Positions 47,132 through 64,000 of a stretch of DNA of 64,000 bases are shown one piece after another (the first letter of the stretch is position 1; each line of letters opens with the position of its first letter). The notes below the pieces were generated by a model that searched no databases, was not told where the DNA came from, and was given only the letters and a program-made list of their open reading frames with translations. Made by a program: the position numbers and the translations under genes. This stretch comes from a virus. The DNA lies in the IMG/VR virus record IMGVR_UViG_3300047994_000617, positions 1 to 64,000 of that record; one strand, given 5' to 3'.

Positions 47132-47662
47132 GCCAGGGAGATGAAGGGCCTGGGATCGCTCCCAAGCTCTCCGTGGTGGCCGTGGGCCAGCTTGCCCCTC
47201 TCGATGGGGTCCGGCGCCAGCGCTTCCACGCTCCCACCAATGGGCTCGGCTGCGCGGCGGTTCATGCGGGATCGCGTCGCGCCCACTTCGCGAAGCCGCC
47301 CGTGCCCATCTCCGGCGGCGAGGTCGCGACGTGTTGAAGCCCCGACCGAAAGGCCGGCGGCCGCCTCTGTCCAGCGGTCCGGCTCCCCACGGGATCCCGG
47401 GTCCGCGCCCTCGCCGAGGTCTCCCCGTGGTCGAAACCCGTCCCCCTGTGGGACGCGCCGAGATCCCACCCCGCGACGCATTCTGATCTGCCTCCGGATC
47501 GATCTGCCTCCTGCCCTCGGAGAGAGACAGCGGTCTCTCTCCGGGGGTGATGATGAGGGGATCCCGGAGAGCAGAAGCGCACCTTTCCACACATTACTTC
47601 CAGGGAGCAAGCCAGCGTGGGTACCTCGCTGCGGTCCACCCTGCCTCGGACCCTGGCCCCCC

Positions 47663-47767
47663 GGGTGGGGAGGTGGGGTGGCCCCGGGGGTGGGGGGATG
47701 GGTGGCTCTTGGGTGGGGGGTGGGGTGGTCGAGGGTGGCAAATCGCTGGGTTTGGGTGGGTCCGGGG
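47663..47767 (+). other. G-run cluster with G-quadruplex potential
   Basis: About 14 runs of 3 or more G in 105 bp. Confidence 0.7.
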
Positions 47768-47780
47768 TCCGGCCGCAAAT

Positions 47781-47836
47781 TCGGCGTGACCCGATTCCAC
47801 TTATCAGTTTGCAGAGGCTTGTCCGGGCCCCATGCT
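47781..47836 (+). promoter_or_regulatory. 24-bp motif copy 1 plus putative promoter
   Basis: TCGGCGTGACCCGATTCCACTTAT, then TTGCAG-16-CATGCT, 6 nt before ATG 47843. Confidence 0.7.
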
Positions 47837-47842
47837 GGCGGC

Positions 47843-49612
47843 ATGACCCAGCACCCGGAGGGCGAGCATGCACCCTACGATCCCTCTGGGGGGGCTGGCG
47901 TACAGACAGGCTATCGACCCTCGCCGCCGCATCCGCCGATCAAGTCACATCCGCTGTTTCCGCTCCCGCTCGACGAGCAGGGGGCGCCCGTCGGCTTCGA
48001 GACGGTCGAGATCTGCTACGTCTGCTTCCTCCGCAAGGGGCAGCCCAATATCTACGCACCGCAGAACTTCGAGGCTGACGACCCGCGCGTACAGGATTGG
48101 GCCTGGGTCGCCGCGACGTGGGGCGGCGGCCAGTACCAGGCCATCGCCAAGGACGCGCAGCGGAGGGTGATCCGGCACTCCGGTGAGTGGATCCTCTTCG
48201 ATGGACCGTCGAAGCCGATGGTGATGCCGCCCGACGGCCCGCCGATGGCGACTGTCGCAGCGCATCAGGCCCCGCCAGCGCCCGCTGCCACTGCCGCGCA
48301 GGTGCCTCCGCCCGCCGCCAGCCTCTCCCCGGAGGTGGCTGCACTCGTCGGCGTGGTCAAGGCGCTCGCCGAGGAGGTCCAGCACATGAAGGCCGCTCCG
48401 CCGGCGCCGCCTCCCCCGACTCCAGAGCAGACGATCCTGCTGAAGGTCGTCGAGAAGCTGGACCGGATGGACGAGAGGTCGCGCGAGCGCCCGCCGGCGC
48501 CAGCGGATTCGCTGGTGGCCGTGATGCCGATGTTCCTTCAGCAGATGAAAGACGCCAGCGACAACAACCGGCTCATCATGCAGGCGATGATGGACCGGAG
48601 GAACGAGACTCCGGTGGCGAGCGTGGTTCCACCGTCGCCGGTGGACCAGATGGCCACTCTCATCAAGATGCTCGAGCCGTGGATCAAGCCCCCGCCGCAG
48701 GCCCCCGCGCCGGCCCCGACTGCACCGGCAGCACCGGCCCCAGATCCGCTCGCTTCGACGTTCGCGGTCATGGACAAGCTCAAGGAGCACGGGATGATGC
48801 CCGGTGCCACCGGAGCAGGGAGCAACGACTTGAAGTCGGTGATCGATGGTGGCGCGGCGGTCGTGACGAGGTTCATCGACGCGAAGGCGAAGACGGACGC
48901 GGCTGCCCTCGAGCTGAAGAGGGAAGAGCTCCGGGCGAGCAGGACGGTCCTCCCGCCGCCGGCCCAGGCCGCACCTCCGCCCCAGGCCGCGCCGCCGGCC
49001 CAGGCAGCGCCGCCGGCCCAGGCCGCGCCTCCGCCCCAGGCCGCGCCGCTGGCGGTCCAGGCCGCGCCTCCGCCCCAGGCCGCGCCGCCGGTGGTCCAGG
49101 CCGCGTCTCCGCCCCAGGCCGCGCCGCCGGTGGTCCAGGCCGCGTCTCCGCCCCAGGCCGCGCCGCAGGCGGTCCAGGCCGCGTCTCCGCCCCAGGCCGC
49201 GCCGCCGGCGGTCCAGGCCGCGCCGTCGCGCGACGAGGCACCTGTGGTGGCCCCTTCACCGCCTCCGCCACCGGGCGCGCGGTCTCCCGCTCCGCCGTCG
49301 CCCGTCGCCGAAGCCGCTTCGATCCTCGAAGAGCTGCCCGCCGACACAACGAGCCTTCTCAGGGAGGCTGCGTCGTCGATCACGGTCGAGGAGCAGATGG
49401 GCGCCGCGCAGGCGTTTGCTGGGCTGAAGAGCCTTTCTCAGTCCGAGCGCGTACCGGTCTTGGAGAGCATGTTCCCCAACATGGACACCGGGATGGCCAC
49501 CGGCGTCTCCCGCATGCTCGACGACCTCCCTGTGGACATGCTCCTGCAGAGCCTCCACGGCATGAAGATGAAGATCCTCCTCAACGGGCATAACCCGCCC
49601 CCGGTGGCCTGA
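47843..49612 (+). CDS. Pro/Met-rich protein with QAAPP repeats (first gene of the late-type module)
   Basis: Coding-like codon use from ATG 47843. Confidence 0.75.
   Translation: MTQHPEGEHAPYDPSGGAGVQTGYRPSPPHPPIKSHPLFPLPLDEQGAPVGFETVEICYVCFLRKGQPNIYAPQNFEADDPRVQDWAWVAATWGGGQYQAIAKDAQRRVIRHSGEWILFDGPSKPMVMPPDGPPMATVAAHQAPPAPAATAAQVPPPAASLSPEVAALVGVVKALAEEVQHMKAAPPAPPPPTPEQTILLKVVEKLDRMDERSRERPPAPADSLVAVMPMFLQQMKDASDNNRLIMQAMMDRRNETPVASVVPPSPVDQMATLIKMLEPWIKPPPQAPAPAPTAPAAPAPDPLASTFAVMDKLKEHGMMPGATGAGSNDLKSVIDGGAAVVTRFIDAKAKTDAAALELKREELRASRTVLPPPAQAAPPPQAAPPAQAAPPAQAAPPPQAAPLAVQAAPPPQAAPPVVQAASPPQAAPPVVQAASPPQAAPQAVQAASPPQAAPPAVQAAPSRDEAPVVAPSPPPPPGARSPAPPSPVAEAASILEELPADTTSLLREAASSITVEEQMGAAQAFAGLKSLSQSERVPVLESMFPNMDTGMATGVSRMLDDLPVDMLLQSLHGMKMKILLNGHNPPPVA
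48952..49225 (+). repeat. Tandem coding repeat, QAA(P/S)PP-type units
   Basis: CAGGCCGCG core repeated in 18- and 21-nt units. Confidence 0.9.
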
Positions 49613-49615
49613 GAC

Positions 49616-50644
49616 ATGCGCTACGCCGACCTGGGCCACGGACTCGAGCGCGCTCCCCGTGGTCCCTTCCTGTCCTTCCCGCCCGTGGACGCTCCGGTCC
49701 CCGACATCCGCCCGATCGGCGGGTTCGGACCGGTGCAACTGCACCCCTGGCGCGGCCCCTTCCCTCCCGTGCCCCTGCACGTCGCGCGCTGGCGCTGGAC
49801 CGGCTACCCCGATCTCTTCGACGCGCTCGACGCGAACGACGACGAGGCTGTCGACGAGGACGAGCTCGCCCGAGGCATCGGCCGGGGGCTCCATCTCCTG
49901 CGCGGCGAGGCGGCGGGGCCGATCGACGAAGAGGACTGGCAGGGAGACCCCGAGGCATTCCGTCTGGTCGACGCCGACGGCGACGGCCGCGTGAGCCACC
50001 GCGAGCTGGCGCAGGCCCTCGGGCCTCACGCCATCCGCCTCGCGCACGGGCATCCGGCGCACGGCCCGATGCTGCCTGCGGGATCGGAGCAGGCGTTCAC
50101 CGCCCACGCCCGCTGGGTCGTGTTCAAGAACCGCGAGGACAAGGCGCAGTACATGCGCCGCGCGGCGATCCACGACGCACAGGATCCCCAGGTCAAGTCG
50201 TGGGCGGTGGAGTTCCTCAAGCTGCCCGAGGACAAGCGCGCGACCGCGATCCTCCGCTTCGTGCAGGAGTGCGTCCGCTACGAGAGGGACCCGGCCACCT
50301 TCGATCCCGATGGCACCCGCCACGGCATCGAGCTCCTCGACAGCGCGCCCACGGGGCTCTGCCGCGGCTACGGGGACTGCGATCTCAAGGCGAGGCTGTT
50401 CGTGGCGCTCTGCCTCGCCTCGGGGATCCCCGCGCAGATCGACCCGGTGTTTCGGGGCGAGACGGGGTTTCCCCATGTCCGCGCGCGGGTGCTGCGCATC
50501 GGGGGAGAGACGTCGGACCCCAGGAACTGGGACGTCGCCGACCCCACGATCGTCAACTCCGACATCGGCAAGCTCCCGGCCAAGCCGCTCACCGCCTGGC
50601 CGGAGCACGCGGGAGAGGCACGGCGGGACACCGGGCCCGAGTGA
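49616..50644 (+). CDS. EF-hand pair plus transglutaminase-like cysteine enzyme
   Basis: DANDDEAVDEDE and DADGDGRVSHRE loops; GDCDLKA, PHV, ADPT triad. Confidence 0.88.
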   Translation: MRYADLGHGLERAPRGPFLSFPPVDAPVPDIRPIGGFGPVQLHPWRGPFPPVPLHVARWRWTGYPDLFDALDANDDEAVDEDELARGIGRGLHLLRGEAAGPIDEEDWQGDPEAFRLVDADGDGRVSHRELAQALGPHAIRLAHGHPAHGPMLPAGSEQAFTAHARWVVFKNREDKAQYMRRAAIHDAQDPQVKSWAVEFLKLPEDKRATAILRFVQECVRYERDPATFDPDGTRHGIELLDSAPTGLCRGYGDCDLKARLFVALCLASGIPAQIDPVFRGETGFPHVRARVLRIGGETSDPRNWDVADPTIVNSDIGKLPAKPLTAWPEHAGEARRDTGPE

Positions 50645-50706: not shown

Positions 50707-50763
50707 TCGGCGTGACCCGATTCCGCTTATGCGTTGGTGCCTGTCCTTGGGCGGAGGAATACT
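50707..50763 (+). promoter_or_regulatory. 24-bp motif copy 2 plus putative promoter
   Basis: TCGGCGTGACCCGATTCCGCTTAT, TTGGTG-18-AATACT, 6 nt before GTG 50770. Confidence 0.7.
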
Positions 50764-50769
50764 CACGTC

Positions 50770-51723
50770 GTGGACTTCTCCTTCAGCCGGGGCTCGGGGG
50801 TTCCCACACCGCCGCCGGCGCTCGGTTCTGACACGAACCCGGCGACGCTGACCGGCGCCGCGGCGGCGGCCTACGTCACCAACGACAACTGCGTCACCTT
50901 CCAGCTCGTCGAGGCCGGACCGCAACCGCTGCACCTCGCCGTCGCGGCCGCCTTCGTGGGGACCGGCACGCCGGGGCTGGTGACGCTTAGCCTGTACGTC
51001 TGGGACCCGACCACGGGGACCTGGTTTGCCCTCCCGACCCCCGCGACGCTCGACGTTGGCCAGGAGGTTACGGTCGACGTCCCGGTGGTGATGAGCACGA
51101 CCCTGGCCTGGACGCTGGCGATCGTCGCGTCGGTGGCCTCCCCGGGGGCCGGGATCTACACGTTCGAGGCGGGGCTCAGCGAGAGCGCCGCCGCCGGGAC
51201 CGGCGGCGGCGGGCCGACGACCGTCGTCGCGAACCAGGGCCTGCCAACGGCGGACACGACCAGCGCCGCGTGGCCCGAAATCGCGGCCAACTCGACGTAC
51301 GGTGCATGCTGGGGGGGCACGGCGCCGTTCGGCGCGCCGACCGCTCCGCCGCTCGCCCCTAACTTCGCGCCGGGCGGCTCGGCGGTGGAAGCCGGCGCGG
51401 TGCGGGTGGTCGCCGGCGGCGTCGTGCGCTGCCTCACGGGCGGGCACGTCGCCGCGAACCCGCCGCCCAATGGCGCGCAGGGCGTGACGAGCACGGACGG
51501 CGCCGGCAACGAATGGCTCGGGCTCGGCCCGCTCAAGCAGGGCATCGTCCTGCGAAACCTCGACGCGACCAACGTGCTCATGTGGGACTGGTTCCCCGAC
51601 CAGGCCGCGGGGTTCCCCATCGGCCCCGGCGCCGCGATGGAGATCCCGGTCTCGGACCCCTCGCTGATCTACGTCTGGGGTGCGACGGCCGCCGTCGGGT
51701 GGGCCGTCGCGGGGGCGTCGTGA
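50770..51723 (+). CDS. Beta-rich putative virion spike/vertex protein
   Basis: Thr/Gly/Ala/Val-rich, few charged residues, two apparent beta domains. Confidence 0.6.
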   Translation: MDFSFSRGSGVPTPPPALGSDTNPATLTGAAAAAYVTNDNCVTFQLVEAGPQPLHLAVAAAFVGTGTPGLVTLSLYVWDPTTGTWFALPTPATLDVGQEVTVDVPVVMSTTLAWTLAIVASVASPGAGIYTFEAGLSESAAAGTGGGGPTTVVANQGLPTADTTSAAWPEIAANSTYGACWGGTAPFGAPTAPPLAPNFAPGGSAVEAGAVRVVAGGVVRCLTGGHVAANPPPNGAQGVTSTDGAGNEWLGLGPLKQGIVLRNLDATNVLMWDWFPDQAAGFPIGPGAAMEIPVSDPSLIYVWGATAAVGWAVAGAS

Positions 51724-52359: not shown

Positions 52360-55300
52360 ATGGAGACTGAGATGCCGGCGCTGCTGGTGGATGGCGACAC
52401 TCGGGCCGCCGACACGCGTCCACTCGACTTGTCGGGCGGCGAGACCGGGGCGGACATCCTGCCCGTCGGCGGCAAGCCCGCGCGCGCGCCGGAGCCCCTC
52501 CACCTGGACAACCTCGCTGGGCAGCCGGCCCCCCTCCAGCTTTCGCCGGAGCCCGCTCCGAGCGCGCCGAAGCCCGCGCCGCGCGCGCCGTCGCCGCCTC
52601 TCCAGCTCAGCGGCGAGCCCGCTCCCAGCCCGCCGCGGTCTCCGGGGCCCCGTCCCCTCCACCTCGGCGCGTCGCCGGCTTCTCCCGTCAACCCGGTCAC
52701 CCCCAGCGCGCCGTCGGCGCGACCGAGGGGGCCGGGCGAGCCGCGGTCGCTGGTCCCCGGCCTCGGCGGGATCCACGCGGGTCACATGGGCGCGGCCACC
52801 GGCCTCGTCCACGGCGCGGTCTCCCAGGTCGGCCGAACGCACCCCCACAACGTCCACATGGGCCAGCTCGCCCACGGCGCGCACGCCGATCCGGTGCGGT
52901 ACGGCGGCGACTTCCTGATCGCGAGCCACGGACCGAAGCGCTTCCACGAGCTCCACGGGGAAGGGCGGCTCCCGTCGCAGGCGTGGGAGCGCCACCGCGA
53001 TATCGCGCGCCATGCGCGCCGCGTCCACGAGGAGCTGGGCGGCGAGCTCGCGCGCCGCCACGGACGCCGGCCCCTCGGGGAGCGCACCCTGATCGGGATC
53101 GCCGCCATGAACGGGGCGCACGACGACATGGCGCGTTACCTCGACGCCCAGCGGGTCCACCCGCACCACCCGGCGCACGAGAGCTGGCACGTCCTGATGC
53201 GCGGCTTTCACCCGCGCGAGATCGCTCGCGTGGGCTCGGAGATCGTGCCCGGGGGGGCCATCGAGCCGGCGGTCGACGCCTACCGCGCGATCTGGGTGGA
53301 GCGCGCTTCAAAGGCACGCGCGGCGCGCCGCGCGTTGCTCGCGCGCCTCCGCGCCCTCTGGGCCTCAGGCGATCCCTCGCTCGTGCCGGCCTTCGAGGGC
53401 GTCGTCCGGGGCATGAGCCCGGAGCAGACGGCGCGGCTCCGTACGACGATCGAGCAGGACGGGGACATCGCGCGCGTGCTCGAGGAGATCGAGGCCGCCA
53501 ATGCCGAGGCGCGCATGGCCTCACGCGAGGCCGCCATGCGGCGCTGGCTCGCCGAGTACCACGCCAACCGCGACCCGGAGGCCCAGACCCCCCTGGACGA
53601 GCTGGCGATGACGCCCCCCTCAAGCGCGCTCATCGGCGCGGCCGAGGGCGACGAGGACGACGACGAGGACGAGGGGGACACGGGCGGTCGCGGCGGAGGC
53701 GGCGGTCACGGCGGAGGCAGCGGACGCGGCGGAGGCCGCCGTCCGAGCGCATGGGGAGGTGCGTGGGGTGGCGGGGGCACACCTGGCTGGTTCTTCCTGC
53801 CCGAGGACCCCGACGAGGCTCTCGACGACCCCGATCCCGAGGCGGGCGCTCCGATGGGCGCCCCGGCCGTGGCCCCGCTGCGGGCGCCGTCTCCCGGCGC
53901 GCACACCGCCGACGGCGTGGTCCCCCTCCACGAGCTCGTGCAGGGCTTCGGTCGCGCCGGCCGCGAGCAGCTCCGCCAAGCCTGGGACCGCGGCAACCCC
54001 TACGACGCCTACCGCGCGATCCTCGATCAGCGGGGCGAGGCGACGCGCGCCGCGCGCGAGGCCGCGTTCGTGGCGCGTCTGGAGCGCCTCGGCTGCATGG
54101 CCGACGGGCTCTGCGAGATCCCCCGCGAACGGCTCACCGCATTCAGCGACCTCACCGAGATGTTCAGCCCGGAGCAGTGGGCGCGGTTCGCGGCCGCGCT
54201 CACCCAGGGCGAGGACAAGCCGCTCGACCTCTTCCGCCAGATCGAGGCGGAGAACCTCGACGCCGCGAAGGCCACCCGGCCGCTCGCCTTCATGCGCTAC
54301 TTCGGATCCTGGGGGCAGCACGCCGCCCGCTGGAACCCGCTGGAGTGGGCCATGCTGGCCCCCCGGATCGGGGTCGACGCGGCGGACGCGGCGGACGCCG
54401 CTGGGATCTTCGACGACCTGAGCGGCGCCCTGGGCGGCGCGCTCAGCGGAGCGGGCGGTGGCGGCGGCGGCAACCCGCTGTCCGGGCTGTCCGGGCTCCT
54501 GGGCGGCGGTGGCGGGGGCGGCGGGGGCGGCGGGGGTGGTCCGGACTTCGGGCAGATCGCCGGCCTCGTCACCAAGGTCGGCGGCGCGATCGCTGGTGCA
54601 GCAGGGGGGCACCCGGGTGCGGGTCTCCCGCCCGACCTGGCCGGCTTCGCCGCCAAGGCCGTCGGAGCACTCACGGGGCGGGCGGCAGCGCCTCCCGTGG
54701 GGCCTCCCATCGGCGCGCCCGCGGCCCAACCGATCCAGGCCCCGACCCGGCCGGTCGTGCATCCAGCGCCCCCGCCGCCGCCCACGCACGAAGGACCGCC
54801 GCGGCACTTCTTCAAGGTGATCGAGGCGTGGGGCCCGCGCGGCAAGACGCAGCTCGCCCACGAGTGGGTCAAGGGGCTCGTCGGGATCGGCCTCGGCGAG
54901 ATGGCGCAGGCGCAGGGGCCCGCCCTCCTGGATCGGATCGCGGTGCGGGAGCTCCCCGCCGCCAACACCGATCCGGCCCAGGGGTGGTGGTCGCAGCTCA
55001 TCGCGCACCAGGGGATCGACGGGAACGAGGCGGAGGTCGTGCTCGCCGCGATCAACGCCGGCCCGGACGCGATCCCGCAGGCCGTCGCGGCCTACCGCCG
55101 CGTGCTCGAGGGGCCCGTACGCCACCAGGCCCTGGAGCGCGAACACCTCTTCGCCGAGGTGCTCGCCGCGGCGCAGAAGGCCGCCGGCAAGCCCGGCTTC
55201 GACCCGAAGCGGCTCCCCGGCCTCGGCAACCCGTTCGAGGCGTTCTCCCACCGCGCCGGCCGCTGGGGCGCCGTCCACCAGGCGCTCCTCAACGGTTCGG

Positions 55301-58300
55301 GCGCCGCGGAGGCATTCCGCGGGAGCGAGGACCAGCGCGTCGCCGACTACCTCCGCCTGGCCGGTGAGCGGATGGAGCACTTCGCCCGCGAGCTCTGGGC
55401 ACGTCGCTCCAAGGCGGCCCCCGCGCCGTCGCCGGCGGCGCCGTCGGGCCCCGAGGCGGGCGACCCGTTCGAGGCGGGCGCCCTGTGGGGCAATCGCTTC
55501 GGGCGCGAGGGCATCCGCCGCGAGGGCATCGTTCGCGAGGGCTTCGGGCGCGAGGGCATCCGCCGCGAGGGCGTCCTTCGCGAGGGCTTCGGGCGGGAAG
55601 GCATCCGCCGCGAGGGCATCCTCCGGGAGGGCTTCGGGCGCGAGGGCATCCGCCGCGAGGGCGCGCTCCGCGGTCCCCCGATGGGTCCCGGCTGGGGCGG
55701 CCGGCAGTGGTCCGCCGGTCACCCGGGGGCGCACAGCTTCGTCGGGTACGACGGCAAGACCCGCATGGGGGAGCACTTCGTCGATTCGCACGGCTATCAG
55801 GCGATGCGGACGGCGGACGGCCACGTCTGGCTGTGGCAGACGGACGGGTCGGGGTGGAAGGACAATGGCCCGGGAGGGAAAAGCCCCGGGTACAGCGAGA
55901 GAGGCCTCCAGGGCTTCTTCGCGCACGTTCACGCGGCCGAGACCCACGGGCCGGAGGAGGAGGCGGGCTTCGCTGTCCGTCGTCCGCGTCCCTTCTTCCA
56001 CCTCGGATTCAACCGGCCGTGGAGCCGGCTCGAGATGGCCCGCATGCTGGAGGCGGTCCCACAACTCCGGGCGCATCCCGATGGTGTGCTCCAGGAGATC
56101 GCGGGGCGCCGGGCGCGTCCGCGCGACCTGCGAGGCGTGGACGCGACACGCCTCGAATACCACATCCTGCCTCGCGGCGAGTCCTTCAACGACATCGCCG
56201 CGAAGCTGGTCGGGGACCGCCGCCGCGGGGCCGAGATCGTCTTCGCCAACCCCGGGCTCGGCGAGGGCCAACGGACCCTCCGGATCCCTCCGGGATGGCT
56301 CGGCCGGATCCCCCTCCGGATCCCCGCGCACCTCGTTCACGAAGCCGCCGGCCTCGATGCCGGGGAAGCCGGCGAAACCGGCGAGGCCGGGTCGGTCCGA
56401 CGTTCTCGGCGCCGCAACGGCGGTGGGAGAGGGCGGGGAGGGCGGGGCGGCCACGGGGGCGGAGGAGGCGGCTACGGCGGCTTCCAGGGCCCCCAGGGGC
56501 CCCCGGGACCCCCGGGCGACGCCGAGCCGGACGACGACGACGCCAGCGGCTTCGTCGACGACCTCCGGGCCCTCGTGCTCGGGGGCGGCGCCCCCGCGCC
56601 CATGATCTCCCCCCAGCCGGAGCCGCCCATCGACGAGACCCCGGTCGATCTCCTGGAGACGCCCCGCGGCCTCGAGACGCCGGCCCCCGGCCACGGCAGC
56701 GCGGTGGACGGTCCGCGGAGCCCGCTGACCCGCACCACCTACAAGGTCGAGCGGTCCGGCATGGGGATGTTCGCCATCGCCCAGAAGTTCGGAGCCGTGC
56801 CGCCGAAACGCGCCCACTGGTTCGGCGAGCTCCGCGACGCGAACCCGCACAAGCACATCGCCGTCGACAGCGCTGGCAAGCAGATCGGCTGGCAGAGCCT
56901 CGGCAAGGGCGAGGAGATCAACATCCCCGACGCCTGGATCGCGAAGGGCGAGGCCTCCGGCGTCGACGAGGAGGCCGGACAGCCCCTCGCGCTGACCGAC
57001 GAGAACCTCGTGGAGGCGGGGCCCCCCATCTTCGCCAAGCTCGGCGACATCGCCGGCGCGACCAAGATCCTGAGGGCCATCCAGGGGCGCCTCGGGAACG
57101 AGGGGCTCGACACGTTTCAGCGAAGGATCTTCGACGCCATCACGGGGTACTCGGACAAGGACCCGGCGATCGTCGAGGTCTATGCGCTCCTCGGCCGTGA
57201 CCGCGGCGTGGCGGCGGCGCTGGACGGACTCCGGAGCGGGCGGCGCGACAGCAAGGACATCTCCCGCTTCGGCCGGAGGGTGCTCGCTGCGCTCACGGGC
57301 GAGCTCGAAGTGGCCCCTCGCCCCCGCAACTACGACACGCAGGGCCTCGACGAGGCGGGCGACACGGGCGCCATCGACGAGGACGCCCTCCGCCAGAACA
57401 TCACCCAGCGCACGTACGTGGTCCAGCGCGGCGACGGGATGCAGGCGATCGCGAAAAAGCTGGGCGCCTTCCCCGCGCGGCCCAAGTGGTTCGCGGAGCT
57501 CCGGGACGCCAACCCCCACAAGGAGATGGCCACCCAGGGCGGCAAGCAGATCGGCTGGAAGCGCCTCTACGCCGGCAAGGTCATCAACATCCCCGACGTC
57601 TGGCCGGAGTCGCCCGCGCTGGTCGCGCCGCCGAGCGGACCGACCGTCGCTCCCCCGCACCCCGGGATCGAGCACGCGCCCGGAGGCCCGGGAGGGGCAA
57701 CCCCCTCCGTGACGGCCCCGCCGGGGACGATCCCCGCGGCCGCCACGATCGACAAGGGGACCATCCATCGGGTGCAGGCGTACCTCGTGCTGTTCCGCAC
57801 GGGTCACCCGGACGCGATCGATCCGAAAGACTTCGGCGTCGGGATGCCGGTCTCCCAGGACGTGATCGGCGTTCCCTCGGCGCGCACGACGAGGGCCATC
57901 GGGAGCTTCCAGCGCTGGAGCAACCGGACCGCGGGCACGCACCTCCGCGAGGACGGTCAGCTCGACCCGGCCACGATCGAGGCGCTCGATCACTACGCGC
58001 TCACGGCCCTCGACCTGCCCCCGCGGCCGGCCCTGGCGCCGGTCCTCGGCGGGGAGATGCCCCACCCGGCCGACCCCTACGGGCCGCTGCTCGACGGCGC
58101 GGCCCACGACGTGACCCAGGTCGCCGTGGACATCGCCCGCAAGGCCGGCGAGCTCCCGCGCCCGCAGACGCCGCCGCCCGGCGCCGCCCAAATCCCCGAG
58201 GACCCGTACCGAGACCTCCCCAAGCTGCGCGGCGAGGTGATCCGCGTGCTCGACGGCGGCCCCCCGGCCCAGCCGCCCGGTCCCGCTCCGCAGCCGCCGG

Positions 58301-58647
58301 CGCCGGCGCCCCCGCCCGCGGGCCCGCCGCCGCGTCCGGGTCCCCCGCCGCGCCGGCACCGTCCGCCGCGTGACGCGGGGCCCGACATGCGCGCCTCCTA
58401 CGACGCGCCGATCCCGTCGCTCGCGCCCGCCCCTCGGGCGCCGGACGGGCTCCCGCCCGCCGCGCCCCCGGACGCGTCGCGCCCGCCGCCGAAGAAGAAG
58501 GCGGAGGGCGACGTCGGCCCGATGATCGGCGGGACGCTGCTGGGCGGCCTGCTCGGCGGCCCGATCGGAGCGGTCATGGGCTTCATCGGCGGCGCGATCG
58601 CGTCGGAGGACCCGAAGCCGACCCCGCCGCCCGCGAGAAGGGCCTGA
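52360..58647 (+). CDS. ~2095-aa modular protein: 3 helical repeats, 3 LysM-like domains, PG-binding domain, C-terminal glycine-zipper TM
   Basis: YVVQRGDGMQAIAKK..ANP..INIP; AIGSFQR..EDGQLDPATIEAL; GGLLGGPIGAVMG. Confidence 0.85.
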   Translation: METEMPALLVDGDTRAADTRPLDLSGGETGADILPVGGKPARAPEPLHLDNLAGQPAPLQLSPEPAPSAPKPAPRAPSPPLQLSGEPAPSPPRSPGPRPLHLGASPASPVNPVTPSAPSARPRGPGEPRSLVPGLGGIHAGHMGAATGLVHGAVSQVGRTHPHNVHMGQLAHGAHADPVRYGGDFLIASHGPKRFHELHGEGRLPSQAWERHRDIARHARRVHEELGGELARRHGRRPLGERTLIGIAAMNGAHDDMARYLDAQRVHPHHPAHESWHVLMRGFHPREIARVGSEIVPGGAIEPAVDAYRAIWVERASKARAARRALLARLRALWASGDPSLVPAFEGVVRGMSPEQTARLRTTIEQDGDIARVLEEIEAANAEARMASREAAMRRWLAEYHANRDPEAQTPLDELAMTPPSSALIGAAEGDEDDDEDEGDTGGRGGGGGHGGGSGRGGGRRPSAWGGAWGGGGTPGWFFLPEDPDEALDDPDPEAGAPMGAPAVAPLRAPSPGAHTADGVVPLHELVQGFGRAGREQLRQAWDRGNPYDAYRAILDQRGEATRAAREAAFVARLERLGCMADGLCEIPRERLTAFSDLTEMFSPEQWARFAAALTQGEDKPLDLFRQIEAENLDAAKATRPLAFMRYFGSWGQHAARWNPLEWAMLAPRIGVDAADAADAAGIFDDLSGALGGALSGAGGGGGGNPLSGLSGLLGGGGGGGGGGGGGPDFGQIAGLVTKVGGAIAGAAGGHPGAGLPPDLAGFAAKAVGALTGRAAAPPVGPPIGAPAAQPIQAPTRPVVHPAPPPPPTHEGPPRHFFKVIEAWGPRGKTQLAHEWVKGLVGIGLGEMAQAQGPALLDRIAVRELPAANTDPAQGWWSQLIAHQGIDGNEAEVVLAAINAGPDAIPQAVAAYRRVLEGPVRHQALEREHLFAEVLAAAQKAAGKPGFDPKRLPGLGNPFEAFSHRAGRWGAVHQALLNGSGAAEAFRGSEDQRVADYLRLAGERMEHFARELWARRSKAAPAPSPAAPSGPEAGDPFEAGALWGNRFGREGIRREGIVREGFGREGIRREGVLREGFGREGIRREGILREGFGREGIRREGALRGPPMGPGWGGRQWSAGHPGAHSFVGYDGKTRMGEHFVDSHGYQAMRTADGHVWLWQTDGSGWKDNGPGGKSPGYSERGLQGFFAHVHAAETHGPEEEAGFAVRRPRPFFHLGFNRPWSRLEMARMLEAVPQLRAHPDGVLQEIAGRRARPRDLRGVDATRLEYHILPRGESFNDIAAKLVGDRRRGAEIVFANPGLGEGQRTLRIPPGWLGRIPLRIPAHLVHEAAGLDAGEAGETGEAGSVRRSRRRNGGGRGRGGRGGHGGGGGGYGGFQGPQGPPGPPGDAEPDDDDASGFVDDLRALVLGGGAPAPMISPQPEPPIDETPVDLLETPRGLETPAPGHGSAVDGPRSPLTRTTYKVERSGMGMFAIAQKFGAVPPKRAHWFGELRDANPHKHIAVDSAGKQIGWQSLGKGEEINIPDAWIAKGEASGVDEEAGQPLALTDENLVEAGPPIFAKLGDIAGATKILRAIQGRLGNEGLDTFQRRIFDAITGYSDKDPAIVEVYALLGRDRGVAAALDGLRSGRRDSKDISRFGRRVLAALTGELEVAPRPRNYDTQGLDEAGDTGAIDEDALRQNITQRTYVVQRGDGMQAIAKKLGAFPARPKWFAELRDANPHKEMATQGGKQIGWKRLYAGKVINIPDVWPESPALVAPPSGPTVAPPHPGIEHAPGGPGGATPSVTAPPGTIPAAATIDKGTIHRVQAYLVLFRTGHPDAIDPKDFGVGMPVSQDVIGVPSARTTRAIGSFQRWSNRTAGTHLREDGQLDPATIEALDHYALTALDLPPRPALAPVLGGEMPHPADPYGPLLDGAAHDVTQVAVDIARKAGELPRPQTPPPGAAQIPEDPYRDLPKLRGEVIRVLDGGPPAQPPGPAPQPPAPAPPPAGPPPRPGPPPRRHRPPRDAGPDMRASYDAPIPSLAPAPRAPDGLPPAAPPDASRPPPKKKAEGDVGPMIGGTLLGGLLGGPIGAVMGFIGGAIASEDPKPTPPPARRA
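55498..55662 (+). repeat. 11 copies of a 15-bp unit encoding xxREG, with a 45-bp higher-order period
   Basis: FGREG-IRREG-(I/V)(V/L)REG array. Confidence 0.95.
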
Positions 58648-58649
58648 CC

Positions 58650-59558
58650 GTGGCAACGGTGCCCCAGGCGCTCGCCTCGCCGACGTCGATCACGTGGAAA
58701 CACGTCGATCCGGATCTCGGCGCCCAGGTCAAGGCGGCGCTCGCGCTGCGCTCGAGGCCGGGCGCTGACCCACGCGAGGCGTTCCGGAAGATGAGCAGCT
58801 CAGAGCGCGTGCGCTTCCTGCGCGCCCTCTCGATCGGGACGCTGCTCGCCATCGAGGACAGCCGCGTGGGCGGGATCCCTCCCCTCGGGGAGATGGACAC
58901 CGCGCTCACGCTGGGGCGCAAGCCCGTCCGAGCGGACCAGTTCGCGACGCCCGGTCACCTCTACGCCGCGTCGATGCTGGCGCGGGCGCCGATGATGATC
59001 GGCGATCCGGGCAAGCACATGGTCTACAGCGCGGAGACGCGCGAGGGTGACCCCGCTGCCCTCGACACCAAGGGCCCCTCGGCGGAGACCGGAGGAGGCA
59101 CGGACACGGGCCTCGCCCCGATCTTGGTCGGGGTGGCCATCGTGGCGACCACGGGCGTGCTCGGCATCGCCATCTGCTACTGCGGCCAGCTCGCCGCCGA
59201 GGTCGTCGATCGCAAGCTGGCGGACGACGCGCTGACCGCGCGCATGGTGATGACCCAGGCATCGGCCTCGGATCTGGTCATGGCGCACACGGCCCGCGAG
59301 CAGGCCGCGGGCGGCGCCCCGATCCCGTACGACGCGGGGGAGCTGAAGGTGCTCGACATGCTCGGCGGCGCGTACGTCGCGCTGGCGAAGAGAGACAGGA
59401 GCCCGATCCCCAACCCCTTCGCCGGTGCGGTGAAGAGCGCGGGGCGGGCCGTAGAGAACGCTGCGAGCGGCGTGGGCTTCGGCCTGGTCGTCGCGCTGGC
59501 AGCCGCGGGGGCCCTCTACGCCGCATCGCGCGCGGAGGCCGCTCCAGCAGAGCACTGA
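58650..59558 (+). CDS. Putative virion membrane protein
   Basis: Two hydrophobic segments; ETG/DTG motifs just before the first. Confidence 0.7.
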   Translation: MATVPQALASPTSITWKHVDPDLGAQVKAALALRSRPGADPREAFRKMSSSERVRFLRALSIGTLLAIEDSRVGGIPPLGEMDTALTLGRKPVRADQFATPGHLYAASMLARAPMMIGDPGKHMVYSAETREGDPAALDTKGPSAETGGGTDTGLAPILVGVAIVATTGVLGIAICYCGQLAAEVVDRKLADDALTARMVMTQASASDLVMAHTAREQAAGGAPIPYDAGELKVLDMLGGAYVALAKRDRSPIPNPFAGAVKSAGRAVENAASGVGFGLVVALAAAGALYAASRAEAAPAEH

Positions 59559-59618
59559 TTTTCGGCCGCGCCGAGCGGAAGCAGGCGCGCGCCCCAGGAC
59601 AACGAAGGAGACGGTGAG

Positions 59619-60209
59619 ATGACGACTCAAGCAGCGGGAGCGGGTGTGATCACGGTGGACGAGAAGGAGTACGCGTCCGGCGTCCGAGCGAAGGCGAAGC
59701 TCGAGGAGCTGAAGCTCGCCGGGAACACCGAAGAGGGTATGGGCCTCATCAAGGGCGGGAAGTACGGCGCCGGCGTGCTCAAGATCGCGGGCGGCTGGGG
59801 CCCCCTGATCACGGCGGCGCTCGCGGGCGGAGCGATCTTCGCCCTGTCCGAGATGAAGTCCGTCAAGGGCATCCAGTTCTTCAAGGACCACTGGTACGCG
59901 AGGGGCATCGCCGGCCTCTTGCTCGCCGCGTTCTTGTGGAAGAAGGGCTATCAAGTGTGGGCCGCGGCCCTCGCCTCCACCGCGCTCGGCCTGATGTACG
60001 CCGACCACGAGAACCGCCAGGGCGCGCCCCCGAAGGAGGCCAGCGGCCCGGAGGACCCGGACGCCGGGTACTGGATCGGCGGCGCGTGGTACCCGCGGCG
60101 CCACTGGGACGACCCGCGGCTCGTCGAGCGCTACCGCCTGGAGGAGCTGCTCCCCGCGCGGCGCGCGGCCGAGGCGCGGGCGGAGCGCCTCTACGAGGTC
60201 GGGGTCTAG
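59619..60209 (+). CDS. Putative membrane protein with 3 hydrophobic segments
   Basis: AAGGAG RBS; TM-like helices. Confidence 0.75.
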   Translation: MTTQAAGAGVITVDEKEYASGVRAKAKLEELKLAGNTEEGMGLIKGGKYGAGVLKIAGGWGPLITAALAGGAIFALSEMKSVKGIQFFKDHWYARGIAGLLLAAFLWKKGYQVWAAALASTALGLMYADHENRQGAPPKEASGPEDPDAGYWIGGAWYPRRHWDDPRLVERYRLEELLPARRAAEARAERLYEVGV

Positions 60210-60231
60210 GCGCGGCGGCGAGGCCGTGAAC

Positions 60232-60268
60232 GCGCAGCCGCGGACCCGAGGGGTCCGCGGGGCTGCGC
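60232..60268 (+). other. Stable hairpin 5' of the capsid candidate
   Basis: CCGCGGACCC-GAG-GGGTCCGCGG within GCGCAG..CTGCGC. Confidence 0.6.
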
Positions 60269-60304
60269 TCCACAAGGATGAGACGAGGACGGGAGAGCAA
60301 GGAC

Positions 60305-61627
60305 ATGGACGCACAGCAGGTTCTCAGTGAAGTGAAGGGTAAGGTCTCCGCCGCCGCGGCGCGGGAGGCCGCCGGGATGGAGGCTGGCGAAGCGGCGGGT
60401 GACACCGCCGGCGTGGACACGGCCCTGGCCGAGGCCGGCGCGGCCGCGGAGGCGCCCGCCGTGATCGTGACGGCGCCGTCGATCGAAGCCGGCATCGAGC
60501 ACCTCAAGCGCGAGGGCGCCCTCAACGTGGAGACCCTGGTGGGCCTCACGCACCACGCGGCGCGGGTCCAGGGCAAACACAGCCATCGGCATGGCTTCCG
60601 CCAGGGCCTGAACCACCACCGCAGGGTCCGGGGAGCGTTCATGCGGCCCCACGACTTCCCGGTGCCGTACGGCCGGAGCGAGGACATGAAGGGGTTCCGG
60701 TACGACGTCATCCAGCGCTTCGCCGAGGGGAACGGCGGCAAGGTGGTGTCGCAGGCGGGCGAATACTACGGGACCTTCCAGACCGCCTTCACCGTTTCGT
60801 CCTTCGGCGGATCGAGCCCGACGAGCGGTCTCTTCTCGATCGTGGTCCCGCCCACGCCGGCGAGCAGCACCTACTACGTCAACCCCCCCGCCGACACCTG
60901 CTTCGACTTCAGCATCGGGGAGTCGGACCCGAACTGGTTCGGGGGGCCACACACGATGACCCTCGCGGACACGAACCTGCAATACCCCGGCCAGGGCCTC
61001 TACCAGAAGGAGGTCTTCATCATCGAGGCGTGGGAGGCCCGCTTCAAGGGGCTCCGGATTCAGTTCGACACCACGAAGATCCCGGGCTTCTCGGCCCTCC
61101 CGCTGCCCATCCAGGCCATGCTGCAGGGGCAGGCATGCATCTGGGATCGCGAGAACCTGGTGCTGCCCTCGGGCATCTTCAACAAGCTCACCGACGTCTG
61201 CGAGCTCGCGCAGGCGCTGGCGGAGGTCGCCAGCATCCAGCTCGAGTGGGTCAACCTCGGGCCCGGGTCGAACAACGTCGTCGCCACGAAGCCTCTCGGG
61301 CGCATGTGCGGCAACCCCTCGACCTACCGCCGGAGCGTCGTGGAAACGAGCGGCGGCGGTCTCGCGCTCGACCTCCCCCGCGGCTACATCTGGTGCCAGG
61401 ACGAGACGTTCCAGCCCAACGAGGACAGCGGCGGCAATGGCTTGCTCTACGGGCAGCTCCTCCTGAACGACAACGTGGACTGGCCGTTCCCGGCGCTCGC
61501 GTCGGTCTACGGGTCGGGCCCCATCGTGCCGACGGGGATCGCCCTGGAGTGGCAGTTCAAGGTCTACGGCACCGCGCTCCTGCCCTCGAAGGCGGACCGG
61601 CGCCTGAACGTCCAGCGCCGAAGCTAG
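60305..61627 (+). CDS. Candidate major capsid protein (jelly-roll type) with an N-terminal leader
   Basis: Beta-rich C-terminal ~270 aa with TLADTNL..GQG..FII; strong codon bias; flanking hairpins. Confidence 0.5.
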   Translation: MDAQQVLSEVKGKVSAAAAREAAGMEAGEAAGDTAGVDTALAEAGAAAEAPAVIVTAPSIEAGIEHLKREGALNVETLVGLTHHAARVQGKHSHRHGFRQGLNHHRRVRGAFMRPHDFPVPYGRSEDMKGFRYDVIQRFAEGNGGKVVSQAGEYYGTFQTAFTVSSFGGSSPTSGLFSIVVPPTPASSTYYVNPPADTCFDFSIGESDPNWFGGPHTMTLADTNLQYPGQGLYQKEVFIIEAWEARFKGLRIQFDTTKIPGFSALPLPIQAMLQGQACIWDRENLVLPSGIFNKLTDVCELAQALAEVASIQLEWVNLGPGSNNVVATKPLGRMCGNPSTYRRSVVETSGGGLALDLPRGYIWCQDETFQPNEDSGGNGLLYGQLLLNDNVDWPFPALASVYGSGPIVPTGIALEWQFKVYGTALLPSKADRRLNVQRRS

Positions 61628-61643
61628 AGCGCCGGAGGAGCAA

Positions 61644-61669
61644 GCCCCGCGCCGGCGACGGCGCGGGGC
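61644..61669 (+). terminator. 11-bp stem with a GNRA loop after the capsid candidate (attenuator or stabiliser)
   Basis: GCCCCGCGCCG-GCGA-CGGCGCGGGGC; no adjacent U-tract. Confidence 0.5.
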
Positions 61670-61703
61670 GCAGCGGCTCAACCTTTCGAGGAGTCGACCA
61701 AAA

Positions 61704-62288
61704 GTGCCCGTCCCGCTCCTCCCCGCCAACGTCAACGCCCAGAAGATCGATCCTCGGGAGCGCGATCCGAGGAAGAACGTGCTGGAGATCGCTCTCCCCT
61801 CGCCTGGCATCCGGCGGGCGTACATCGTCCTCCAGACCGGCACGATCACGGACGAGGAGTGGAATCGGATCTGGTGGACGCTTCAGGCCGACGTGATGCT
61901 TGCGGAGACCTTCGACGGCCTCGACCACATCTCCCTCCTGCCAGGCCTGCTGGAGATCGCGCCGCTCACGACCACCGTCGCTCACGTGGCCACGGCATAC
62001 TGGGTGGAGGGTTTGCCCGCGACGAGTATCCGCGTGCGCGTGTCGAGCTACGGAGAGCAGCCCTCGGGCTATGCGCAGGTCTACGGCTGGGGCGACACGA
62101 CCCCGCACGACAAGTCGGGGCTCTGGCCGGCGCCCTATGGGCACGTCCGTCAGCCGCGACGCATCGTCGCGCCACTGCCCGATCCCGAGCAGACCCTCGG
62201 CGAGACGTCGCTCGTCGATTTCCTCATGTTCACCGACCGGATCGGCGCGCCGCCGCGCGAACCGCAGGTGAAGCTGCACAAACGTTAA
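61704..62288 (+). CDS. Hypothetical structural-module protein
   Basis: GAGGAG RBS plus GTG. Confidence 0.7.
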   Translation: MPVPLLPANVNAQKIDPRERDPRKNVLEIALPSPGIRRAYIVLQTGTITDEEWNRIWWTLQADVMLAETFDGLDHISLLPGLLEIAPLTTTVAHVATAYWVEGLPATSIRVRVSSYGEQPSGYAQVYGWGDTTPHDKSGLWPAPYGHVRQPRRIVAPLPDPEQTLGETSLVDFLMFTDRIGAPPREPQVKLHKR

Positions 62289-62313
62289 CGGCCCCAGGCC
62301 AAGGATTTTTGCC

Positions 62314-62757
62314 ATGTCCGCTGTTGCCCCCAGCCTCATCCTGCCCGTACAAGTCATCAGCCCCGTCCCGTGGACGGGGAACATGCAAGCCGTCGTCACC
62401 GTCAACTGCCTCGACGGCGATACCGGCCAGACGGCCTCCCGCGCGAGCGCCTGGATCCAAGTGCCACCGGGCATGATCCCCCAGCTCTCGCTCGGCCTCA
62501 GCGCGGAGACCGGTACCTTCGGGTGCTACCTCGAGACCTGCAACCAGGTCGTCGCCGGCGCCGCCGTCGACACCCCCCGCCCCATCGGCTACTTCAAGCA
62601 GACCCCCGGGGCCGCGCTGCCGACCTCCACGCCGATGTCGGGAGGCCAGCCCACCGACAACTGGGTCCGCGTCCAGAGTCAGGTCGGCAACGGCGGCAGC
62701 GTCGCATGGCTGGTGAGCGGTCGCTTCATCGCCGCGTCGTACGCGCAGCAGCTCTGA
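62314..62757 (+). CDS. Small beta-rich protein, possible single jelly-roll minor capsid protein
   Basis: AAGGA RBS; beta-strand pattern. Confidence 0.6.
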   Translation: MSAVAPSLILPVQVISPVPWTGNMQAVVTVNCLDGDTGQTASRASAWIQVPPGMIPQLSLGLSAETGTFGCYLETCNQVVAGAAVDTPRPIGYFKQTPGAALPTSTPMSGGQPTDNWVRVQSQVGNGGSVAWLVSGRFIAASYAQQL

Positions 62758-62769
62758 TCTCGAGGTCGA

Positions 62770-64000
62770 GTGGCCCTCTTGCTGATCCAGGCGGGGACTG
62801 GCGGCGCGCTCTGCGTCTACGCCAGCCCCTTGCCTGACGTCAGCCCGGGCCACCCGGACACCACCACCGCGCCCGGCATGCCCGGGCCGACCAAGGCCGC
62901 CCTCGGCCCCGTCCCCTGCATCGTCGGCGTCAACGCCCGGGGCTCCGAGACCCCGGAAGAGATCCTCGCCTTCGCCACGGCGAAGACGGGCCGGGAGCTC
63001 TGGTGGGGTGCGCTGATCGGCGTCTCCCGGGGCTGCCAGAGGGTCCGCGACCTGTGGATCGCCGGCGCTGGGGCCCTCGCCCTGGTCCTCATCGACGGCA
63101 TGGCTGGCGTGAAGCCGCCCACCGAGATGCAGAAGGGCTTCACCCAAACCATCGTCGCCCTCGCGCGGTCCGGCGCGATCCTTTTGGTCGTCAGCCACAC
63201 GTACATCGACCAGGGCAAGGCGATCACCTCGACCGCCGAGATGGCGCGGACCGCCACGGGGTGGTCGCTGCCCCCTCCGCCCGTCGGGGAGACCGTGCGC
63301 CGGGTCCAGATGCCCGCCGGCGAGACGCCAGCCCCTCCCGGCTGGCGCGGGGGCCTGGTGGTCTTCTCGACGGGCTCGGGCCCGGCCGATGGCGGCGCCC
63401 ACCGCGACCAGATGGGCAAGCTGCTCCCGCTCATCCTCGAGGATCGGGTGCGGCCCCTGGTGAGCCTGGCGGAGCGGCCCGAGGTGGTCGCCTCCGCGGT
63501 GCCGGCGAGCTCGCCGGAGCCGGAGGCCGAGACGGGGCCGTGGAGTCGCCTGGGCGCCTTGCCGGCGCATGGATCTACGGCTGCACCTACCGCTGCACCA
63601 ACCGCTGCACCAACCGCTGCACCAGGGCGCACGACCGCAGACGGGGCGCGGCGCTACCTCTTGATCGGCGACTCGTTCGCCCAGGGCTTCGGGCCGCCCC
63701 TCGCCGAGCTGGCCGGGAAGCGGCGCCTCGCCTTCCGGGGGGTCGGCATCAAGTCGACCACGATGGGCGACTGGCTCACGGGCGGGCGCGGGGCGGACCT
63801 CCGCGGCGCCGTCGAGGCCGCCGACCCAACGGTCACGATCGTGTCGCTCGGTGCGAACGACATGGCCGGAGGCGATGCAGCGGGCCGCCGGGCCGGGGAC
63901 GTTATCGACACCCTCCGCCGCAACGGCTCGGCCGCAGTGCTCTGGGTGGCGCCGCCGAAGATGCCCACCGAGAGCGCCCCCTTCCGCACCGCCCTCGCCG
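62770..64000 (+). CDS. Alpha/beta-hydrolase-like plus SGNH/GDSL hydrolase fusion (partial, not in the ORF track)
   Basis: Open frame from GTG 62770: LIGVSRG (GxSxG), then LIGDS, SLGAND, LWVAPP. Confidence 0.8.
   Translation, partial: MALLLIQAGTGGALCVYASPLPDVSPGHPDTTTAPGMPGPTKAALGPVPCIVGVNARGSETPEEILAFATAKTGRELWWGALIGVSRGCQRVRDLWIAGAGALALVLIDGMAGVKPPTEMQKGFTQTIVALARSGAILLVVSHTYIDQGKAITSTAEMARTATGWSLPPPPVGETVRRVQMPAGETPAPPGWRGGLVVFSTGSGPADGGAHRDQMGKLLPLILEDRVRPLVSLAERPEVVASAVPASSPEPEAETGPWSRLGALPAHGSTAAPTAAPTAAPTAAPGRTTADGARRYLLIGDSFAQGFGPPLAELAGKRRLAFRGVGIKSTTMGDWLTGGRGADLRGAVEAADPTVTIVSLGANDMAGGDAAGRRAGDVIDTLRRNGSAAVLWVAPPKMPTESAPFRTALA
63577..63624 (+). repeat. Four 12-bp units encoding a TAAP linker
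   Basis: ACCGCTGCACC(A/T)-type units. Confidence 0.9.

Follow-up and report, generated by a model that had tools for sequence, protein, structure and literature searches.

A short acidic-[Ala/Thr]-Gly motif at module junctions and leaders of virion-type proteins in a probable myxobacterial provirus, and its possible role in maturation

The window analysed here is the whole stretch of 64,000 nucleotides that forms the first 64 kb of one 128,625-bp contig recorded as a virus (IMG/VR record IMGVR_UViG_3300047994_000617); its GC content is 70–76% and the + strand carries nearly all genes. A short motif, [ED]-[AT]-G (an acidic residue followed by Ala or Thr and then by Gly), is recurrent in the virion-type proteins encoded by this element and occurs at chance level in its replication-side proteins. 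On the comparative evidence described below the motif is a real, selected short peptide signal, placed at the joints between modules and in the N-terminal leaders of a single class of proteins; this class comprises a wall-binding/membrane-anchored giant protein of 2095 amino acids (aa), a 302-aa membrane protein, a 449-aa capsid candidate, an SGNH/SpoIID hydrolase and a 3285-aa mosaic protein.

The gene of the giant protein (52360..58647, + strand) encodes a Gly/Ala/Pro-rich polypeptide (14.5% Gly, 13.9% Ala, 11.9% Asp+Glu) with a hydrophobic segment near the C-terminus and 15 strict motif sites, all in linkers. A sequence-only reading of the window had counted about 20 sites in this protein, clustered between its domains: 19 are found with a loose pattern ([ED][AT][AS]?G), 15 with the strict [ED][AT]G, and the clustering is borne out: conserved blocks account for 39% of the protein, and not one of the 15 sites falls within them. 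All the motif strings quoted by that reading were recovered by a string check in the genes to which they had been assigned; those of the giant protein are EGDTG (438), DPEAG (492), DAADAAG (676), PEAGDPFEAG (1031), EEEAG (1199), EAAGLDAGEAGETGEAG (1328), DDASG (1393), EASGVDEEAG (1531) and DEAGDTG (1664). As for the helical, basic and LysM modules which the sites had been thought to separate, the helical and the basic, Gly-rich ones are present, while the LysM-like and peptidoglycan-binding-like ones correspond to sub-threshold Pfam matches only (LysM, expectation value (E) 0.014; PG_binding_1, E 0.0077).

The motif was also said to occur in the genes starting at 58650, 59619, 60278 and 62770, and the strings are present in all four. 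In the 302-aa membrane protein (58650..59558, + strand), ETGGGTDTG at residue 146 (DNA 59085–59111) stands directly before the first hydrophobic helix, and in 4 of the 5 members of its family [ED][AT]G precedes the first membrane helix, as in GEAGFPPLLL; the 196-aa protein (59619..60209, + strand) carries EASG at residue 140 and DAG at residue 148. The 1039-aa SGNH + SpoIID hydrolase, recognised by Pfam (62770..64000 in the window, continuing to 65889 of the contig, + strand), has EAETG at residue 252 (DNA 63523–63537) in the linker ahead of its SGNH domain; the motif stands before this domain in two of three SGNH/SpoIID proteins, the L014 relative having DAG-PP and the L010 relative none. Upstream of the giant gene lies that of a 329-aa protein (50734..51723, + strand), identified by tblastn and alignment, with 3 sites against 0.68 expected; its relatives at loci L014 and L015 stop just past the position of the EAG at residue 145, and the window copy continues for about 180 further residues, an added module, after that EAG.

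The 449-aa capsid-like protein (60278..61627, + strand) consists of a helical leader (residues 12–116), a His/Arg-rich segment and a beta-rich domain (135–444), and its motif sites, at residues 35, 52 and 70 (leader DNA 60365–60439), with EAAGMEAGEAAGDTAG at 30, all fall in the leader. Within the family the leader position reads x-[DE]-[A/T/C]-G-A-P-P-x-L, the strict [ED][AT]G being present in 12 of 17 members, as read by eye from the family alignment (A2); in the AlphaFold model the leader motif region is disordered, with a predicted local distance difference test score (pLDDT) below 50 for residues 37–59. The structural role given to this protein by the sequence-only reading, that of a capsid candidate, finds partial support: the best fold matches are to single-jelly-roll capsids and the neighbours are mostly viral (the top three of its nearest atlas clusters are 67–93% viral), but the matches are weak and amount to no proof. 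The best Foldseek match of the beta-rich domain is SPV1 (6oj0, E 0.045), and with VIA-align the model of residues 135–444 gives Z 7.0 and a root-mean-square deviation of 4.5 over 158 aligned residues, unrelated helical matches being found at similar Z. The His/Arg-rich segment (residues ~95–125, consensus HAHRxGHxRGFRRG) is conserved across the 17-member family, and a role in binding DNA or membrane is conceivable.

The number of sites in the giant protein exceeds what its composition predicts: the 15 strict sites compare with 6.14 expected from a global shuffle and 5.10–5.69 from shuffles confined to segments of 12–100 aa (P 0.0000–0.0010 across the global and segment-wise shuffles, 5000 each), and among the six orderings of the residue classes only [ED][AT]G (15) and G[ED][AT] (10) are high. 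EAG accounts for most of the excess (9 vs 1.86), and four of the 15 sites form one 9-bp tandem array, at 56355–56390. The motif was picked post hoc, after inspection of the sequence, and EAG ranks 24th of 5968 tripeptides genome-wide by z-score; given this choice, the enrichment in the 2095-aa protein taken alone is suggestive only. The protein has six homologues (2091–2477 aa, 36–41% identity), and all 7 giants are enriched, with ratios of 1.64–3.58, a total of 92 sites against 28.7 expected, and 10 to 19 separate motif clusters per protein.

Six sites occupy the same alignment position in at least 5 of the 7 giant homologues, two of them in 7 of 7; such shared sites occurred in 0 of 1000 fixed-column shuffles and in 0 of 33 replicates in which the linkers alone were shuffled and then realigned. 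Anchor 1, an ETG at residue 28 (52441..52449), closes a short N-terminal leader and is common to 6 of 7; anchor 2, EAG-AP at residue 494 (53839..53847), stands 7 residues upstream of a conserved block and is common to 5 of 7; anchor 3, PEAGDPFEAG at residues 1032–1040 (55453..55479), is common to 6 of 7; anchor 4, DAGEAGETGEAG at residues 1333–1344 (56356..56391), which is the 9-bp tandem array, is common to 7 of 7 and is directly followed by a basic Gly-rich segment; and anchor 5, DEAGDTG at residues 1665–1670 (57352..57369), also common to 7 of 7, directly precedes the last LysM-like module, with the consensus DAGAL-RQN (all on the + strand). Between anchors 3 and 4 the giant gene contains a further tandem repeat (55496–55662), describable as 45 bp in 3.7 copies or 15 bp in 10.6 copies, which encodes REGIRREG-type pentapeptide repeats (GREGIRREGIVREGF...) in a region highly variable among the homologues. 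At two related loci the giant gene is divided between two open frames, of 937 and 957 aa separated by a 1.7-kb gap in L014 (9665–17062) and of 862 and 584 aa in L012 (2540–7360); the cause may be a frameshift in the assembly, an insertion or a genuine split, and these loci were not used as evidence.

The motif thus keeps its places in linkers that are otherwise unalignable among the seven giant proteins, for instance as DEAGAL, DDAGAL and SDAGAL-RQN ahead of the last LysM-like module and as DDAG-x-VRR ahead of the basic segment; extended, it reads roughly acidic-acidic-[A/T]-G-[A/D]-[P/L/V], often DAGAP or DAGAL. The members of the class that are used differ by lineage, one homologue having 8 DAG and no EAG and another 4 ETG, and this lineage-dependent choice among EAG, DAG and ETG is how a selected class motif behaves. 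Selection acts on the peptide, because the codons at the sites vary as elsewhere in these genes: the 57 sites are encoded by 29 distinct 9-mers whose codon usage matches that of the genes overall, and the DNA pattern is present 57 times in the reading frame vs 4 and 16 times in the other sense frames. A motif at the DNA level is ruled out by this codon variety and reading-frame bias.

The distribution of the motif among proteins is uneven. The module of genes from 50734 to 72042 holds 32 sites vs 15.30 expected, and the 3285-aa mosaic 25 vs 7.83, with 6 vs 0.09 for the extended [ED][AT]GAP; 44 replication-side proteins (26 vs 29.27) and a second giant, of 3427 aa (5 vs 5.54), show no excess, and none of the reversed, basic and other-middle-residue control motifs is enriched. 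A second element, in the related genome G001, repeats the pattern: its giant has 20 vs 6.4, its capsid-like protein 3 vs 0.8 and its serpin mosaic 7 vs 2.5, while its two DarB-like giants have 2 vs 3.5 and 4 vs 3.4; summed over that element, the homologues of the module and of the mosaic have 33 vs ~11.8 and the other element homologues 21 vs ~27.3. The enrichment in late versus early proteins, with composition control, which had been put forward as a check on the motif, was thus found in the virion-type module of both elements and not on the replication side. The two kinds of giant protein belong to different classes, because the 3427-aa one is without motif excess in either genome; it is encoded at G000:C1:94016-104299 and has homologues in the G001 element (G001:C18:1006515-1017715). 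In the host chromosome of G001, away from the elements (317 open reading frames (ORFs), 400 kb), the motif is found 174 times vs 178.63 expected, a ratio of 0.97, by which a lineage-wide linker dialect of myxobacteria is ruled out.

Placement at junctions can also be followed in the 3285-aa mosaic (G000:C1:105689-115546 = L003:3689-13546), which lies outside the window and for which a homologue search in its size range found only the protein itself. It contains a full serpin domain (residues 519–887, E 1.2e-104) with 0 motif sites inside, and DPF is often beside the motif (6 vs 0.74). Modules that stand far from one another in the mosaic are reordered in two ORFs of the G001 element (1124 and 474 aa; L036:2613-8138), among them a module of ~115 aa with at least two copies per protein, and in these ORFs the motif is found 0–23 residues before 6 of the 7 distinct module starts, the seventh being 98 residues away; BLAST matches starting at 38, 243, 333 and 652 compare with motifs starting at 38, 226, 326 and 647.

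Shortly upstream of the giant gene, a 342-aa protein (49616..50644, + strand) combines EF-hand loops (residues 72–83 and 119–130) with a transglutaminase-fold domain (~165–325), and is a candidate Ca-gated cysteine protease. Pfam assigns EF-hand_6/7/1/5 and Transglut_core (PF01841, E 9.4e-6; 26.3 bits vs a cut-off of 23, and 28.2 bits for the catalytic domain alone); the triad is kept throughout 50 aligned sequences (C255 in 50/50, H287 in 50/50, position 309 being D in 29 and E in 21), as are the Asp residues flanking the catalytic Cys (D254 and D256, 49/50 each). With the AlphaFold2 model (pLDDT 82.7), the Foldseek matches among known structures are 3isr, 3kd4, TgpA, LapG, PNGase, Rad4, TG2/3 and PeiP; the LapG entries (4u65_E, E 1.6e-3; 4fgq; 4fgo) rank below 3isr, 3kd4 and TgpA and are interleaved with the others, and a profile search of the sequences of solved structures with the enzyme alignment returned Rad4 alone (E 0.23). 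The enzyme is encoded by a conserved core gene, present in 3 copies in the related genome G002 and in 3 strong copies in G001 (5 matches listed in all), equal in both to the copy number of the 449-aa capsid-like gene (3 and 3), and it is the only protease-like gene seen travelling with the module. A predicted complex of enzyme residues 47–342 with the capsid-like leader (1–130) had a score of 0.01 and a mark of 0.32, which weighs neither way. The N-terminus (residues 1–46) is rich in Pro and has no ordered structure in the model (pLDDT <50). Domains related to the catalytic one are also encountered on their own, in proteins of 150–200 aa, or as part of fusions as long as 1286 aa.

The setting of these genes is that of a large element apparently without a tail. 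Among the genes scanned with Pfam (38 out of 91 called ORFs), those upstream of the motif module include DnaB, two C5 methylases, an SF2 helicase, a PolA-type 5'-3' exonuclease, a PP2C phosphatase and an FtsK/SpoIIIE-type ATPase (45110–47131); tailed-phage families are absent from the genes scanned with Pfam and PHROGs, and the clan CE viral proteases (adenain, pS273R, I7L) from the Pfam-scanned set. The 2095-, 302-, 196-, 449- and 194-aa proteins match no Pfam or PHROG family; PHROGs gave, for 9 module proteins, a single weak match to a family of no known function, NCBIfam gave EF-hand-type and chance matches only for 10 module proteins, and blastn of 45110–50644 against 50,697 phage records gave no match. 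The gene order conserved among related loci, as determined by tblastn, is transglutaminase-fold gene, 329-aa gene, giant gene, then the 302-, 196-, 449-, 194- and 147-aa genes and the SGNH/SpoIID gene; these loci are found in a Byssovorax metagenome-assembled genome (MAG), in a Polyangiaceae MAG, on three metagenome contigs and, twice, on a 1.78-Mb contig of an uncultured deltaproteobacterial MAG. A scan of a viral contig collection with an alignment (A1) produced 85 pattern matches, 0 of which were confirmed as related loci. The 449-aa and 3285-aa proteins themselves are also on record from a 684,557-bp contig, and because the element's own 449-aa protein is recorded there, the 128.6-kb virus record is probably the excised region of an integrated provirus; it belongs to a family of large proviruses in myxobacteria of the Polyangiaceae type. 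A preprint on myxobacterial viruses (10.64898/2026.09.14.751636) deals, in the part of its text available, with head-tailed groups, and that part does not contain the words jelly, tailless, non-tailed or FtsK.

What the signal does is a separate matter. It repeats at every junction and in the leaders of a defined virion-type class, which is the pattern of protease sites, as illustrated by two systems mapped by experiment, A-X-E in giant phage heads (PMC10052503) and Gly-Gly-X in pp220/pp62 of African swine fever virus (PMC10308890). The best reading is therefore that the sites are recognised and cut by a maturation protease, a reading to which we give slightly less than an even chance. Such a protease would trim leaders and cut giant precursors into modules during or after particle assembly; the cutting itself, the bond cut, the enzyme and the gating by Ca2+ are what we infer. 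The candidate cutter would be the EF-hand protein with its transglutaminase-fold Cys-His-Asp/Glu domain, working like the Ca-dependent proteases LapG and DvhG, with the EF-hands holding it off at low cytoplasmic Ca2+; that this particular protein is the protease acting on the motif is, in our judgement, possible but rather doubtful. The widest form of the proposal, in which tailless jelly-roll proviruses of ~130 kb mature by multi-site precursor cutting with an independently recruited, EF-hand-gated transglutaminase-fold protease triggered by high Ca2+, so that cutting would be delayed until lysis or until the particle reaches the periplasm of a new host, must be considered unlikely as a whole.

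Several observations weigh against cutting, or against this enzyme as the agent. In the 2095-aa protein DAG is at chance (2 vs 2.15), and collapsing sites no more than 10 aa apart leaves a modest excess (10 vs 5.05, P=0.026); the anchor-site test is a test of conservation, not of function, because its shuffles remove all linker homology. Some sites clearly fall within folded parts, such as LVEAGPQP, in a conserved stretch of the 329-aa family, and ETGFPH, which adjoins the catalytic His of the enzyme itself; and in the 302-aa family the motif abuts the membrane helix, which is awkward for a soluble protease. As far as the enzyme is concerned, cross-linking transglutaminases and PeiP, a viral wall enzyme, are among its fold neighbours, its gene adjoins wall-binding-like and wall-degrading genes, and the LapG family PF06035 is not matched (hmmscan of the catalytic domain with E up to 10 returns PF01841 alone); the protein could equally be a cell-wall enzyme. 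The LapG-type site [TAP]AAG is not enriched (module 5 vs 5.89, mosaic 2 vs 1.83) and is for that reason ruled out as the signal; [ED]AAG is found in the module 5 times vs 1.68 expected.

The most serious competitor is that the junction signal is selected and left uncut, being either a hinge or cap between modules or a docking motif to the assembling particle or membrane, comparable to capsid-targeting sequences or scaffold-binding tags; we hold this to be a substantial possibility, if on the unlikely side. An acidic-small-Gly sequence followed by Ala-Pro-Pro breaks helices, the motif is found directly ahead of the membrane helix of the 302-aa family and of folded modules (DAGAL-RQN before the LysM-like one), as would befit a cap, and the position at junctions, the conservation and the class specificity would be the same as if the sites were cut. 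If the motif were a generic hinge, however, an excess would be expected also in host proteins, in the 3427-aa giant and among the multidomain proteins of the replication side, and none of the three shows one; docking would need no more than a single tag in each protein, yet 10 to 19 clusters per giant and a tandem amplification are found, and repetition at every junction is the look of polyprotein sites.

Cutting by some other protease, be it the C39-like domain of the mosaic, an unrecognised protein of the element or a host enzyme, is a good deal less probable; the transglutaminase-fold protein would then be a Ca-dependent wall endopeptidase serving entry or exit, or a cross-linker, roles to which its kinship in fold with PeiP (a viral pseudomurein endoisopeptidase) and with true transglutaminases, and its wall-type gene neighbours, lend some weight. 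The mosaic does carry a Peptidase_C39_2-like stretch with motif sites on both sides (896–919 and 1116–1135), but the match is below the Pfam cut-off (19.7 vs 24 bits), a search with mosaic residues 901–1150 as query located no counterpart in G001 or G002, though both carry motif-rich proteins, and among the protease-like genes seen the transglutaminase-fold gene alone accompanies the module.

The reading without any function, in which the motif is a by-product of Ala/Gly/Glu-rich linkers, of triplet-repeat slippage or of an in-frame DNA signal, can appeal to the Gly/Ala/Asp+Glu-rich composition, the 9-bp array, the post hoc choice of the motif and the rank of EAG, but is largely refuted and very improbable, the excess surviving shuffles inside 12-aa segments and being absent from the host chromosome, the same positions being kept by EAG, DAG or ETG in homologues of 36–41% identity, and the pattern lying in the reading frame with codons that are not fixed.

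Maturation by proteolysis at specific sites has been described for tailed phages and, among eukaryotic viruses, for giant and adeno-type ones; in our literature search no report of it was found for tailless, membrane-type bacterial viruses. The combination of the motif, an EF-hand transglutaminase-fold enzyme and a tailless-type bacterial provirus would be new, although maturation cutting itself is known. If the sites are cut, polyprotein-style assembly would have arisen separately in a lineage of bacterial viruses with a different protease fold, and a simple sequence rule would allow the mature virion proteins to be predicted for a group without cultured members; should there be no cutting, the motif still marks one functional class in dark-matter elements and delimits the modules of its proteins.

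The sequence-only reading had compared the supposed processing with that of poxviruses, African swine fever virus (ASFV) and adenoviruses; the comparison stands for function only, since the proteases of those viruses have another fold. Poxvirus proteases act at AG/X sites, and C39 peptidases cut after leaders of the Gly-Gly type. The present motif resembles the double-glycine leaders of C39 systems in its pair of small residues (with Gly) and in the C39-like stretch of the mosaic, and differs in that this match is below the cut-off and has no counterpart located in G001 or G002 by the query used, and in that no transporter context was seen.

In ASFV, a large icosahedral DNA virus that contains a membrane, as described in the part of the source available, the precursors pp220 and pp62 are cut into core or shell modules by pS273R, a SUMO-protease-like enzyme, at Gly-Gly-X (PMC10308890). 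The likeness, which is one of analogy and goes as far as that description, may lie in a giant precursor with several short Gly-containing sites; the protease fold, the site (GG-X vs acidic-A/T-G) and the animal host are different, and no homology was found. A bacterial case is the giant tailed phage SPN3US, of phiKZ type, in which, according to the available portion of the report, the prohead protease gp245 trims leaders and cuts long propeptides after A-X-E and 42 other head proteins are uncut (PMC10052503): that system, so far as described there, shares with the present one a bacterial virus, many copies of a three-residue motif, leaders or propeptides and a defined virion subset, and is unlike it in belonging to a tailed phage, with the protease inside the prohead and the cut after Glu, the acidic residue coming first in the present motif. 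A transglutaminase-like domain with sequence-specific proteolysis is also found in McjB (MEROPS C96), the leader peptidase of lasso peptides, in the portion of the literature consulted (PMC10885120); unlike the enzyme described here, McjB makes small peptides and needs a recognition element.

A close parallel is offered by LapG and DvhG (bacterial transglutaminase-like cysteine proteinases, BTLCP; MEROPS C93), which, in the text of the source as available, are Ca-dependent transglutaminase-like proteases that cut giant adhesins at [T/A/P]AAG, with a di-alanine scissile bond placed after a helix and a 'DP' turn, the Ca site of DvhG being formed by D316/C317/E318 (PMC13090378). The differences are that the present domain belongs to PF01841 and not to PF06035, that Ca would be sensed by added EF-hands, that the [TAP]AAG site is not enriched here, that there would be many sites per substrate instead of one, and that the setting is a provirus and not a periplasmic biofilm switch. 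The likenesses, within what that text covers, may lie in a transglutaminase-like Cys-His-Asp fold with acidic residues flanking the Cys (D-C-D here vs D-C-E in DvhG), the theme of Ca, a site of small residues ending in Gly within very large proteins, and, recalling the 'DP' turn of the LapG-type site, the DPF found near the motif in the mosaic.

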